This document shows positions 872-4,976 of a DNA stretch of 4,976 bases, in pieces. The notes under the pieces were generated by a model. It was not told the origin of the DNA. It made no database searches and saw nothing but the letters and a program-made list of their open reading frames with translations. This DNA comes from a virus (lineage: Duplodnaviria > Heunggongvirae > Uroviricota > Caudoviricetes), in the IMG/VR virus record IMGVR_UViG_2693429680_000009; one strand, 5' to 3'. The position numbers and the translations under genes are program-made. Position 1 is the stretch's first letter. Each line of letters starts with the position of its first letter.

Positions 872-1726
872 TTATGACGAATTTACCACAGATTCCGGAA
901 AAATCAACCTAGTTACCTTTTTTAACTGCCGCTCAGCCCATGCTTCTTCAATATCAAACCGAGTCACCAGCGCATCATAGAATTTCTTAACTGTTTTTTC
1001 CCATGACGCGCGTGTTATCTGGTTTGTCACCTCGCATATAGCATTAAATGCCTCCGTTGATGGTAGTCTTTCATAGCCACGACCACCACAACGCTGGCAG
1101 TCTCTGATAACAGGCATACCACGTTTTACCGACTCTTCACGATGAATGGCGACACCACGCCCACGGCAATCCTTACAGGCGGTGGAAACCTCACCCTTTC
1201 CGCCACACTCCGGACAGGCAACTTTTACCACCTCCCTGACTTTTTTCCATTCTTCCCAGTAAGACGGATACACACCTTTCGTACACTTTGCCCATACCGG
1301 CGGCTTACCATCCGGATACTGGATCTTGTTTGTAAAAACCTCGCTTTCAATAAATTTTTTTCCGTGACAGCAGGGGCACTGTTTTTTGCTCGCCGCGCTA
1401 CGGGCATAATCTTCAAACGCATACGAAGCCATAATACGCATCACTGCCGGTTTTATTTCTGCCGGGAGTTTTCTTAACGCCGCCACGCGATCACACCGAC
1501 TGAGTGCATATTCTGTCAGCAATTCTGTTGCCCGCTCTCTGTCATTCATACTAATGCCCATTTTCCCAAGGAACGCAGAAACCCCCATCTCAGCCCGATT
1601 CTGTGTCATGCCCTGCGCGGCCATCACATCAGTGATACTCAGCGCATCTTTCGACGTTGAGGCCGATGCATCAGTCAGGCCGGGGGATTTTGGGGAGTAG
1701 TATTTCGGTAAATCTTCCAGTTTCAT
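872..1726 (-). CDS. Q-type late-gene antitermination protein (284 aa, multiple CxxC zinc-finger-like motifs)
   Basis: Long ORF with CPCC, CPEC...CKDC and CQRC motifs. Sits directly downstream of rusA (ATGA overlap at 1723-1726) and directly upstream of a promoter/terminator pair and tRNA genes, the canonical lambdoid Q position. Family call is by context and recollection, not a search. Confidence 0.7.
   Translation of the reverse strand: MKLEDLPKYYSPKSPGLTDASASTSKDALSITDVMAAQGMTQNRAEMGVSAFLGKMGISMNDRERATELLTEYALSRCDRVAALRKLPAEIKPAVMRIMASYAFEDYARSAASKKQCPCCHGKKFIESEVFTNKIQYPDGKPPVWAKCTKGVYPSYWEEWKKVREVVKVACPECGGKGEVSTACKDCRGRGVAIHREESVKRGMPVIRDCQRCGGRGYERLPSTEAFNAICEVTNQITRASWEKTVKKFYDALVTRFDIEEAWAERQLKKVTRLIFPESVVNSS
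880..907 (-). promoter_or_regulatory. Putative late promoter (pR'-like) embedded in the last codons of the Q-type gene
   Basis: Minus strand: TTGATT (-35, plus 902-907), 16-bp spacer ending TGG (extended -10 TG), TAAATT (-10, plus 880-885). Predicted start near 873, reading toward the terminator at 806-832 and the tRNAs. Confidence 0.45.
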
Positions 1727-2103
1727 TTTTTGACCTGCCCTTCAAGCATTATGGGATAAATCTTCACCCCCAGACGTCCACCAGATACTGGCTGAGCACG
1801 AACGATATTGATTTCATCAAACTGCTCATCGTCCATTAGCAACCCCGCATGCGTCAGCGCATCCAGCGGCGCTTTCAGAATATTGTCCAGGTCACGGCGG
1901 CGCTTATCCGGTGGTTCTGCAATAATTTTTATTGCCAACCTTCCGGACAGGCTTAATTTCAGCCGCTGCTGGCGAACAATAAGCGCCACTGCCCGGCGAT
2001 AACGCTCCCCGGCTTTTGATACAAAATATGTGCTGCCACGACGACGCCAGTAAGTGTTCACCGTCGGCGGGTAAGGTAAAACAAATTCTATGCGCTCGGT
2101 CAT
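1723..2103 (-). CDS. rusA: RusA-family Holliday junction resolvase (126 aa)
   Basis: Protein contains PDKRRRDLDNILKAPLDALTHAGLLMDDEQ and VLPYPPTVNTYWRRRG, matching the RusA acidic catalytic core as I recall it from E. coli RusA. Start abuts the upstream stop (TAAATG at 2101-2106). Confidence 0.9.
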   Translation of the reverse strand: MTERIEFVLPYPPTVNTYWRRRGSTYFVSKAGERYRRAVALIVRQQRLKLSLSGRLAIKIIAEPPDKRRRDLDNILKAPLDALTHAGLLMDDEQFDEINIVRAQPVSGGRLGVKIYPIMLEGQVKK

Positions 2104-3162
2104 TTATGCTTTCCACTTCAGAACACCCGAATTTCTCGCGTGCATTAAAAAACGAATCAGCAACAACAGCTGACTGCCGTGTTTCTCTTCAAAATCTTTT
2201 ACTCCGGCATGTAGTTCGTTACGGCATTTACGGCATAACGGAATAACAAACAAATCATCAGCCTTTGTTCCCATCCCTCCCAGTCCATGACCAATGATGT
2301 GATGCGGATCATCTGCCTGATTGCCACACGTCATGCATTTCTGCGTTTTTACCCAGCGCGTGTATACAGGCATCTCTTCCCGTTGTGATTTCTGGCGCTG
2401 GAGATACTGAGCCGGTGACTCCGGATCAACGGCAATGCTGACCACCGTCTTTTCCTGTGGTGGGTTCTGTTGCTGGTGGACGTGAGGCAGTAACGCAATA
2501 TTTTTTGTGCGCTGCTTCAGTATGCTGGTGGCTGTCTGCTCTCCCGGTATGATGTCGCTTTCACTGTACACAGAGCGAATTTTTTCCGCACGCAACCCCA
2601 GCGAACGACGTAATACCGCTTCCGGTAGCGCGTCCGCCACCTGATTGCGGACCGCCCACCAGGATAATTCAGCCAGAGATAATTCACGCTCCTGCGTACC
2701 GCTTATTGCGTGACCGATGACGTCAATCATCCATGCTGACAGGTTTTGATGAGCAAGTTGCTCGAGTGATTCGGATGTCTGGTCACGCAGCTGGTTGTCG
2801 CAGTGCCAGCACAACACCATTGCGCCGGTACCATAACGGTGAATGACGGTTTCGCTGTGATGATAATCGCCGTGTGGCCACTGGCAGGATTTAATATGGC
2901 GCAACAGCCAGTCAGACAATGCACCAGCACCACCAGCAGCACGAATCACCCGTGCGTTACTGAAAAACGGCAGCAATGTTTTGTCTTCCACCAGCGGCTG
3001 GCGAGCGGCAGGAACGACCCCGGACGGCAGATTACGCATGCTTTTTGGTTCCGGCTCCACCAGTATTCTGCCGTTATGGAATGCTGACATTGATTCACGG
3101 CCTGGCTTAACGATAACCAGACCGAGTTCCGGTACCAGAACAGGTCGAAGTAATACCCGCAC
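2104..3162 (-). CDS. DUF968-family prophage protein (YdfU-like) with C-terminal HNH-like motif, 352 aa
   Basis: Full-length ORF in the position YdfU-type genes occupy before rusA/Q. C-terminal CMTCG...PHHIIGHGLGG...LCRKCRNELH has HNH-like CxxC...HH...CxxC...H spacing. Start is uncertain: GTG at 3162 sits only 4 nt from a GGAGG; internal ATGs at codons 25 and 42 lack a good RBS. Confidence 0.72.
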   Translation of the reverse strand: MRVLLRPVLVPELGLVIVKPGRESMSAFHNGRILVEPEPKSMRNLPSGVVPAARQPLVEDKTLLPFFSNARVIRAAGGAGALSDWLLRHIKSCQWPHGDYHHSETVIHRYGTGAMVLCWHCDNQLRDQTSESLEQLAHQNLSAWMIDVIGHAISGTQERELSLAELSWWAVRNQVADALPEAVLRRSLGLRAEKIRSVYSESDIIPGEQTATSILKQRTKNIALLPHVHQQQNPPQEKTVVSIAVDPESPAQYLQRQKSQREEMPVYTRWVKTQKCMTCGNQADDPHHIIGHGLGGMGTKADDLFVIPLCRKCRNELHAGVKDFEEKHGSQLLLLIRFLMHARNSGVLKWKA

Positions 3163-3237
3163 ATTACCTCCAGATCCGTTGCTGGAATGTGCGGGACGGA
3201 CGCGTTGGCCGTTCGGAGTAAGGGAGCCTGACGGAGA

Positions 3238-3519
3238 TTATCCAGTGACGGTAGTCGAGGCTAAGGGCTTTTTTAACCTCGCATCCGCGCCTGCGGTAAC
3301 ACTGAATGAGCCATTCGGCCTGTTCTTCAGTGCATGGGGGATGCTGGTACCAATCAGATTTAAATGCGTGAGAGCGCCGCCCGTGCCTGCTGGCAAAGAC
3401 GGCTGAATTATCAGAATTGTGTAGTCTGGAAGGCAGTGGCTGACAATAGCGCCATTCTCAACGCGCACAGTATAGAGGCCATCTTCACTAAAAATTTCAC
3501 GTAATTCTTCGATTTTCAT
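3238..3519 (-). CDS. Small hypothetical protein (93 aa from the ATG at 3519; the track calls a TTG one codon upstream), in the rem position of Qin-like prophages
   Basis: ORF with RBS GGAAGG 9 nt upstream of the ATG; lies between the hok terminator and the DUF968 gene. No recognisable motif. Confidence 0.45.
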   Translation of the reverse strand: MKIEELREIFSEDGLYTVRVENGAIVSHCLPDYTILIIQPSLPAGTGGALTHLNLIGTSIPHALKNRPNGSFSVTAGADARLKKPLASTTVTG

Positions 3520-3601
3520 CAACAGAATCCTTCCAGATAAATAGCACTCCCCTGTTCGGGGTCCATCCCTCTTCTCCCTGCGCGCTACTTAAGTATTTTT
3601 G

Positions 3602-3639: not shown

Positions 3640-3671
3640 AAAATAAAAACAAAAACCCGCCGAAGCGGGTT
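3640..3671 (-). terminator. Rho-independent terminator of the hok transcript
   Basis: Minus-strand hairpin AACCCGC-TTCG-GCGGGTT (stem CCCGC/GCGGG, tetraloop UUCG) followed by TTTTGTTTTTATTTT. Confidence 0.8.
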
Positions 3672-3739: not shown

Positions 3740-3895
3740 TTACTCCTCAGGTTCGTAAGCTGTGAAGACAGCGACCTCCGTCTGGCCGGTTCGAATTCGT
3801 ACCTCGCAGAGGTCTTTCCTCGTTACCAGTGCCGTCACTATGACGGTTAAACAGATGACGATCAGGGCGATTAACATCGCCTTTTGCTGCTTCAT
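3740..3895 (-). CDS. hokD: Hok/Gef-family type I toxin (51 aa), HokD/RelF-like
   Basis: Translation MKQQKAMLIALIVICLTVIVTALVTRKDLCEVRIRTGQTEVAVFTAYEPEE: single transmembrane helix and conserved Hok C-terminal region; matches HokD/RelF as I recall it. RBS AAGGAG 7 nt upstream of the ATG at 3895. Confidence 0.9.
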   Translation of the reverse strand: MKQQKAMLIALIVICLTVIVTALVTRKDLCEVRIRTGQTEVAVFTAYEPEE

Positions 3896-3952
3896 AGCCT
3901 GCTTCTCCTTGCCTTTCGGCACGTAAGAGGCTAACCTAGATTTGCCGTTCAT
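3740..3952 (-). CDS. mok-like leader reading frame (70 codons), in-frame N-terminal extension of hok
   Basis: ATG at 3952 preceded by GAGG; the frame runs through the hok start. The 19-codon extension MNGKSRLASYVPKGKEKQA resembles the layout of chromosomal mok/hok pairs as I recall them. Confidence 0.55.
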   Translation of the reverse strand: MNGKSRLASYVPKGKEKQAMKQQKAMLIALIVICLTVIVTALVTRKDLCEVRIRTGQTEVAVFTAYEPEE

Positions 3953-4030
3953 AGATTGAGCCTCAGATTAATGTTAAGCGTCTTGCCGGACGCGTAATGT
4001 TAACTGGGGCTTTTCTCTATCTGCCTTTTG
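3940..4030 (+). ncRNA. Expected Sok-like antisense RNA region (not resolved)
   Basis: Inferred from hok/sok architecture only: the antisense regulator should be on the plus strand opposite the mok start. The best plus-strand promoter-like match is weak (TTGCCT 3909-3914, TAACCT 3932-3937) and no clean plus-strand terminator was found; a hairpin GCGTC/GACGC lies at 3976-3993. Confidence 0.2.
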
Positions 4031-4071
4031 GTGTTCATGCCTGAGACAGATAGCCTCAAGCACCCGCTGCA

Positions 4072-4186: not shown

Positions 4187-4531
4187 TCATCGTAAAATAT
4201 CCTCCACGCTTATCAGTCCGTTCCGCTCCAGATAACTCATCGCCTTATCCGGTAATTTGCAGTCTGGCTTCGCTTTCCTCAGTTGCCAGGTTAACTGCTT
4301 TACCAGCATGGTTAACTCATCGACCAGACGCTGATATCCCACTGGTTTGTATTCATGCAATTTACCGGCTGGCTCTGCTGCCAGCGATACCAGTGCGATT
4401 TCCAGAACAGCAATATCCATCTTATATGTGCGGATGATGTCATGGTCGATTGTGCCCGGTATGCACAGTCTCTGTGCTTCAATAGTCTCCTCTGCGTGAG
4501 CTATTAACTGCTCTCTGGTAAAAGTCGTCAT
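4187..4531 (-). CDS. Hypothetical protein, 114 aa, partial paralog of the upstream 55-aa ORF
   Basis: ORF from the track. Its ATG (4529-4531) overlaps the stop of the upstream 55-aa ORF (ATGA). Shares N-terminal MTTFTRE and a central [10 protein letters not shown] motif with that ORF. Confidence 0.55.
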
Positions 4532-4695
4532 GCCGTAGCCCCTTCTTGATATTTTTCAAACCAGAACACAACCGGCTCTGCTTCCAGCGATGCCAGCGCA
4601 ATCCGTGCCAGTTCCATTTGTTCACCACGGGTAAGCCCGTTTTCAAGCGGGTTTTTAATGAACAATTCAATACGTTCTTTGGTAATAGTGGTCAT
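4528..4695 (-). CDS. Hypothetical small protein, 55 aa, absent from the ORF track ([55 protein letters not shown])
   Basis: Hand-translated codon by codon. RBS AAGGAG 6 nt upstream of the ATG at 4693-4695; stop TGA at 4528-4530 overlaps the start of the 114-aa ORF. Confidence 0.5.
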
Positions 4696-4705
4696 GTGTT
4701 ACTCC

Positions 4706-4936
4706 TTAACCCGCAGTGCTTTCAACTGATGAGGGGAACAAAATCTTTTCATCAAACCCTGCATTCATATCATGAACAGCAACACACCAATCCATCGACG
4801 AACGATTATCAAGAGCCTCCATGATTTCATCCATGCGGCGTAGGTCATACAGGTAAATGCTTTTATCGCCAATGGTGTAAAAGCCAATTTTTTTCGGTGA
4901 TGGATGAGGTGTACTGGCAATAGCGGACACTACCAT
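4706..4936 (-). CDS. Hypothetical ORF, 76 aa, whose start codon and first 10 codons lie inside the right inverted repeat
   Basis: ORF from the track. No convincing RBS before the ATG at 4936 or the internal ATGs; its stop sits immediately upstream of the 55-aa ORF's RBS. May be a fragment or have a different true start. Confidence 0.35.
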   Translation of the reverse strand: MVVSAIASTPHPSPKKIGFYTIGDKSIYLYDLRRMDEIMEALDNRSSMDWCVAVHDMNAGFDEKILFPSSVESTAG

Positions 4937-4976
4937 TTGTTCTTTTTTTAAGCAGCCATCTGATGATATTTTTCCC
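4905..4976. repeat. Right copy of the 72-bp perfect terminal inverted repeat
   Basis: Exact reverse complement of 1-72. Confidence 0.95.

Follow-up and report, generated by a model that had tools for sequence, protein, structure and literature searches.

The window, i.e. the whole analysed stretch of 4,976 nucleotides, covers the end of a lambdoid nin region, and all its genes are located on the minus strand (Table 1). Three small ORFs are followed by a Hok/Gef family ORF with a sok RNA, a Rem-like ORF, a DUF968 gene of the YdfU family, rusA, Q, two tRNA genes and the STnc100 sRNA. The DUF968 gene starts with GTG at 3162, with GGAGG upstream at 3167-3171, and ends with TAA at 2104-2106. The ATG of rusA follows this stop codon at once, and the stop of rusA overlaps the start of Q as ATGA. 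The Hok ORF and sok together make up a complete hok/sok type I toxin-antitoxin locus, after which a terminator-like hairpin was found at 3654-3671. A second frame (3164-3436, minus strand) overlaps the Rem-like ORF and is separated from the DUF968 start codon by a single base. It is homologous to an ORF of ~92 aa which abuts the DUF968 start in related genomes and which is annotated as 'hypothetical protein' in one strain and as 'toxin to Rem' in a related phage; in the window this frame apparently has no ATG, GTG or TTG start of useful length.

Table 1. Features of the window and conserved positions of the DUF968 protein. Conservation refers to the 104 non-redundant full-length homologs.
Feature	Position	Strand	Conservation	Basis, remark or putative role
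Three small ORFs	4706-4936, 4528-4695, 4187-4531	minus		
sok RNA	3890-4065	minus		Rfam, 112 bits
Hok/Gef family ORF	3740-3952	minus		
Rem-like ORF	3238-3522	minus		first ~30 residues match K-12 Rem
YdfU-family (DUF968) CDS	2104..3162	minus		352 aa; ORF list and sequence
N-terminal domain core, residues 78-135	2758..2931	minus		predicted second beta-beta-alpha zinc finger
Linker, residues 190-261	2380..2595	minus		partly disordered
C-terminal predicted His-Me finger (HNH) domain, residues 262-352	2107..2379	minus		
HNH motif, residues 276-318	2209..2337	minus		translation and conservation in 104 homologs
Codon 314	2221..2223	minus		CGT (Arg) vs CAT (His) in relatives; single transition
rusA, Holliday-junction resolvase	1723..2103	minus		Pfam RusA E 1.5e-16; PHROG 34 E 4e-56
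Q, late-gene antiterminator	872..1726	minus		Pfam PF03589 (Antiterm family) E 1.8e-53
tRNA-Met	694-769	minus		
tRNA-Arg(UCU)	517-593	minus		
STnc100 sRNA	251-440	minus		Rfam full-length, 123.6 bits; downstream of phage tRNA genes
C276			104/104	putative zinc ligand
C279			96/104	putative zinc ligand
H287			101/104	putative auxiliary metal ligand
H288			101/104	putative general base
D303			104/104	putative stand-in for the HNH Asn
C310			98/104	putative zinc ligand
Position 313			H 54, C 41 (C or H 95/104)	putative zinc ligand
Position 314			His 99/104	putative primary metal ligand
H318			100/104	putative +4 auxiliary ligand

At least 1000 contigs encode a protein identical to the DUF968 product, which is recorded as 'DUF968 domain-containing protein [Shigella sonnei]', and in S. 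sonnei chromosomes of ~4.8 Mb the locus lies between two inverted IS3-family elements. The gene is a YdfU-family member of a lambdoid prophage remnant in S. sonnei. The ends of the window form a perfect 72-nt inverted repeat (1-72 and 4905-4976). The repeats correspond to the outer ends of the two inverted IS3-family copies that flank the segment in complete ~4.8 Mb Shigella chromosomes, which rules out an assembly or hairpin artefact; accordingly, the window is a contig delimited on both sides by repeated IS ends. At ~807-809, a segment of ~1.5 kb which lies downstream of Q and encodes an N6/N4 DNA methyltransferase is missing in comparison with complete Shigella chromosomes carrying the identical DUF968 protein (L004, 8365-9889). 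The 3' end of Q (872-913, minus strand) is also altered: the product has 284 aa vs 273 aa in L004. Since the sequence reads past ...KKVTR into LIFPESVVNSS, the usual stop codon of Q was lost or shifted.

The DUF968 protein was matched by Pfam DUF968 (PF06147) at residues 160-344 with an E-value of 2.6e-62 and 210.3 bits, the gathering cutoff being 27.8, and over its full length by PHROG 96 ('HNH endonuclease', E 1e-162). It shares 78% identity over the full length with YdfU of the E. coli K-12 Qin prophage (b1560), which shares its two-domain layout and likewise precedes Q in the nin region. Neither NCBIfam nor PADLOC gave a match, so that nothing connects the protein with a known defence system. 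A search of 1.8 billion cluster representatives resulted in 1270 relatives. The first alignment contained the query and 33 full-length relatives (25-92% identical); the enlarged set comprised 104 non-redundant full-length homologs, including 80 loci added from Enterobacterales genomes. The linker between the two parts of the protein holds the family motif VDPEpPA...RPK with an invariant K258, and its pLDDT in the predicted structure falls below 50 at residues 227-240.

The sequence-only reading had placed an HNH-nuclease-like zinc motif at residues 276-318 of the 352-aa ORF. Both the residues and the coordinates agreed exactly with the translation of 2209-2337 on the minus strand, CMTCGNQADDPHHIIGHGLGGMGTKADDLFVIPLCRKCRNELH. 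The spacers of that reading (x8/x4/x6/x6/x3) were wrong, and its pattern, used as a regular expression, gave no match; the actual spacing is x6/x4/x5/x5/x4, i.e. CMTCG-x6-HHII-x4-GG-x5-DD-x5-LCRKC-x4-H. Judged by the matches to Pfam DUF968, HNHc_6 and PHROG 96 and by the conservation in the 104 homologs, the HNH motif is far above chance. The match to Pfam HNHc_6 (PF16784, 'putative HNHc nuclease') at residues 261-328 was marginal, 28.0 bits with a cutoff of 26.6, and reached 31.1 bits (E 2e-7) with the C-terminal domain alone as the query; it spans model positions 113-184 only.

The structure predicted for the full-length protein had a mean pLDDT of 86. Its C-terminal part consists of a helix (265-272), a strand (285-288), a glycine-rich loop, a second strand (306-309) and three further helices (311-319, 321-328 and 331-344), and thus contains the beta-beta-alpha core, with an antiparallel pair of strands leading into a helix. 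The Foldseek matches were weak (best E 0.8); HNH domains were at the top of the list, and the best structural similarity among all matches was to Ref. A PDB sequence search with the single protein found nothing relevant, and the PDB search with the C-terminal profile was not significant, the best match being YbcO with E 0.68. The model, the HNH-led Foldseek list and the Pfam and PHROG profiles support the proposed HNH fold at the end of the protein, so that the comparison of profiles and structures suggested earlier came out in its favour. Poor conservation of the motif among DUF968 homologs had been named beforehand as a possible objection; in the 104 homologs the residues were strongly conserved. 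Residues ~262-352 can be regarded as a His-Me finger (HNH) domain with a putative nuclease role.

An HNH domain of DUF968 proteins beside RusA and Q is already known from Pfam, PHROGs and two papers. DUF968 proteins with a C-terminal zinc-finger HNH motif, found fused to recombinases, were described by Curtis et al. 2014. Jablonska et al. 2017 placed DUF968 and DUF1364 in His-Me finger group 7, naming YdfU and YbcO (3G27), listed RusA and Q as neighbours and proposed a role in recombination. A nuclease function of YbcO was predicted by Kaur and Subramanian 2016. Two relatives have been assayed: Gp16 of the staphylococcal phage phiNM1 is a nickase, which nicks plasmids, is bound and stimulated by RecA, and is dead as the C181A mutant (Xu et al., NAR 2026), and P1 Ref cuts only RecA-bound DNA.

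The similarity of the C-terminal domain to Gp16 was 37% over 59 aa in BLASTP (E 5e-8), with 34.5 bits for the family HMM. Gp16 has the same CxxC...CxxH/C zinc site and H...H-x3-H pattern and is likewise encoded by an early phage gene near rusA. The corresponding values for YbcO were E 2e-5 and 16.8 bits, while the similarity to Ref was marginal (pairwise E 0.015). By sequence, the DUF968 protein does not belong to Pfam DUF1364 (YbcO), nor was it matched by Pfam RecA_dep_nuc, the Ref family, even at E-values up to 10. YbcO of DLP12 (PDB 3G27) differs in being a 96-aa single-domain protein with a C-x7-C first zinc pair and Asp at the position of H318; in DLP12 it fills the same slot before rusA. 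Ref (PDB 3PLW) differs in that its basic N-terminus is disordered and a long insertion precedes the active-site H153. Judged by these similarities, the C-terminal domain of the DUF968 protein probably forms one small group with YbcO (DUF1364), P1 Ref and phiNM1 Gp16.

The published definition of the His-Me site comprises a His in strand 1 and, as the direct metal ligand, an Asn or His within the first turn of the helix. Auxiliary ligands are D, E or H immediately preceding the catalytic His and a polar residue at position +4 or +8. Mapped on the model, the definition points to H288, found at the end of the first strand, as the strand-1 His, H314 as the helix ligand, H287 as the preceding residue and H318 as the +4 residue. 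These roles are consistent with the aligned sequences of Gp16, YbcO and Ref, where H288 corresponds to Gp16 H157, YbcO H32 and Ref H113. The sequence-only reading had taken H318 for the final histidine of the HNH motif; by the published definition, the primary ligand is at position 314 and H318 is auxiliary.

The set H287-H288-D303-H314-H318 is complete in 99 of the 104 homologs. The four Cys/His ligands characteristic of HNH domains with a treble-clef zinc knuckle are also present, C276/C279 before strand 1 and C310/C313 where strand 2 passes into the helix. All eight homologs without C279 also lack C or H at position 313, and all eight retain H-H-D-H-H. Since the two losses coincide, the Cys pairs are predicted to form one zinc site, in line with the CxxC...CxxC site proposed earlier. 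Four homologs with a degenerate catalytic set retain all four zinc ligands. In three distant full-length proteins (P0200, P0205 and P0223) the HH pair, the GGMGTK loop and both helix histidines are lost and the four zinc cysteines are kept; their sequences suggest C-terminal domains that were inactivated naturally. Residue 302 (2257-2259, minus strand), beside the invariant D303, is a second departure of the window from the family consensus: it is Asp (KADD) in the window and in the E. coli/Shigella subclade and His (KAHD) in 94 of the 104 homologs.

It is very unlikely that the domain is a non-catalytic zinc finger in the whole family, binding only DNA or protein, e.g. as a cofactor for Q or for recombination proteins, in the manner of the dead Smad MH1. 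Such a role would fit the published existence of dead His-Me fingers, the four members that keep all zinc ligands without the catalytic residues, and the position of the gene immediately upstream of Q genes, which belong to several unrelated families. Against it, the full H-H-D-H-H set is found in 99 of 104 homologs, including the eight without the zinc ligands, which argues for selection on catalysis and not only on zinc-dependent folding. Moreover, nuclease activity in vitro is known for the homolog Gp16.

In the window, position 314, directly behind the second CxxC, is occupied by Arg, the sole Arg among the 104 homologs, a feature missed by the sequence-only reading. The closest 120 cluster representatives all have CRKCH, in contrast to CRKCR of the window. 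The zinc site is CCCH in YdfU of Qin (CRKHHNELH), which retains His314, and CCCC in the window (CRKCRNELH), which has Arg314. The Asn or His of the first helical turn, present in the family, is thus absent from the S. sonnei copy, in which the auxiliary ligands H287 and H318 are intact. As H318 is only an auxiliary ligand, the classical H-N-H triad of this copy is incomplete. In comparison with an E. coli allele, the dN/dS was 0.15 for the whole gene and 0.023 for the C-terminal domain, where H314R was the only replacement alongside 10 synonymous changes. The gene is no obvious pseudogene, given that at least 1000 contigs carry an intact Arg allele.

Because the primary metal ligand His314 is replaced with Arg, the S. 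sonnei copy is probably catalytically impaired, i.e. a nuclease of reduced or no activity, encoded by a decaying prophage with flanking IS elements. The substitution need not abolish the function, since Gp16 mutants at the equivalent positions kept part of their effect in vivo: alanine at the equivalents of H314 (H185A) and H318 only partly relieved the toxicity, and growth inhibition was unaffected by alanine at the equivalent of H288 (Xu et al., NAR 2026). We consider it unlikely that the S. sonnei protein is a fully active HNH nuclease working like its E. coli relatives, either with H287 and H318 sufficing for the metal or with the Arg stabilising the transition state. The partial relief by Gp16 H185A, the intact H288, H287, D303, H318 and four zinc ligands, and the intact ORF with its exact sequence on so many contigs would agree with full activity. 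The contig count, however, is no sign of selection because S. sonnei is clonal and heavily sequenced. Also contrary to full activity, position 314 is His in 99 of 104 homologs and never otherwise Arg, its equivalent is His in YbcO, Gp16 and Ref, and it is the direct metal ligand as defined in the His-Me finger literature.

[quoted passage not shown] The model contains a helix (78-89), two strands (105-110 and 113-118) and a helix (119-125), with C93, H101, C118 and C121 as putative zinc ligands and the conserved motif C-W-H-(H/C)-D-N. C93 and C118 are invariant, residue 101 is H or C in 103 of the 104 homologs and residue 121 is C or H in all of them. Residues ~78-135 are therefore predicted by the model and the alignment to form a second zinc-bound beta-beta-alpha finger. 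No conserved histidine was found at the end of its first strand among the 104 homologs; the spot equivalent to the metal ligand is occupied by D122 (96/104). The second finger is probably non-catalytic and most likely would be a module for binding DNA or a partner.

An internal duplication, i.e. homology of the two fingers, was unsupported by sequence profiles: hhalign of the N- and C-terminal domain profiles gave alignments in register that were not significant (P 0.03-0.09). The N-terminal HMM scored only 0-4 bits with Gp16, Ref and YbcO, and the PDB search with the N-terminal profile gave chance matches only. The NinB/Orf-like DNA-binding domain seen at the N-terminus of Gp16-type Gram-positive fusions is absent from the DUF968 protein. 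In P0146, P0174, P0176, P0226 and P0127, the N-terminal part of YdfU is joined to tail-tip, tail-fibre or portal domains; these proteins were not accepted as real architectures, being most likely chimeras of prophage deletion or mis-assembly.

A tandem arrangement of His-Me fingers may tentatively be proposed, which we regard as possible but somewhat doubtful. The N-terminal finger, having lost its catalytic histidine, would target DNA branches or a partner, e.g. RecA, and the C-terminal Ref/Gp16-type nickase would cut, the S. sonnei H314R protein binding without cutting. Neither the second finger nor the natural H314R mutant was found in the papers examined. The predicted N-terminal finger and the missing metal ligand of the S. 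sonnei allele are new points.

The gene neighbourhood was compared at 80 enterobacterial loci, which were found with a narrower alignment, as the diverse alignments had too few conserved stretches. The DUF968 genes at these loci belong to the nin region, and the next gene downstream is usually Q. The downstream Q genes belong to at least four unrelated families (PF06530, PF03589, PF06323 and DUF1133), plus one unassigned type. In contrast, RusA is encoded directly downstream in only 3 of the 80 loci; it is found within 4 kb in 44 of them, mostly upstream and on the same strand. The tight DUF968-RusA-Q operon proposed from the sequence thus holds in the window, where the TAA/ATG and ATGA junctions couple the three genes translationally, and not as a trait of the family. 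Qin has no rusA between ydfU and Q, whereas the window has it there. The conserved neighbour is Q and not RusA, which is a new point. The frequent co-occurrence within 4 kb rules out RusA and DUF968 as mutually exclusive alternatives.

Genes for NinG, NinB and YbcO were found in none of the 80 DUF968 loci. Like the DUF968 protein, lambda Rap (NinG) is encoded in the nin region shortly before Q, and it is an HNH-type, branch-specific endonuclease. No sequence relationship between NinG and the DUF968 protein could be detected (6.5 bits, no Pfam NinG match). DUF968 and NinG may be alternatives to each other, since NinG was absent from all the DUF968 loci.

The same neighbourhood makes it hardly credible that the protein is a packaging-associated HNH protein like gp74 of HK97, or else a mobile homing endonuclease, instead of an enzyme of recombination or replication. 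The adjacency to terminase or portal genes typical of gp74 was not found; the gene lies in the early nin region, between hok/rem and rusA-Q and away from the terminase. Unlike a mobile gene, it keeps the same syntenic position in the 80 loci from many genera, and its nearest relatives in structure and sequence are Ref, YbcO and Gp16, not gp74.

In the proposed mechanism, C276, C279, C310 and C313 would hold a structural zinc that connects the first hairpin with the beginning of the helix. In the active site of the family, H288 would act as the general base at the end of the first strand, one catalytic divalent metal would be held by H287, H314 and H318, and D303 would substitute for the HNH asparagine. 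The analogy with Gp16 and Ref suggests a metal-dependent DNA nickase as the family enzyme, which would be expressed from the nin region just before Q, act on phage replication or recombination intermediates and possibly be stimulated by RecA. To the explanation as a whole, comprising the C-terminal His-Me finger domain, the proposed nickase family and the impaired R314 copy, we assign a probability of about 0.8.

A cloned S. sonnei copy would probably be a dead or weak enzyme, and the use of a His314 allele is advisable for biochemistry. For the uncharacterised ydfU of E. coli, the analysis provides a putative residue-level map of the active site, which is tied to the assayed enzymes Gp16 and Ref.
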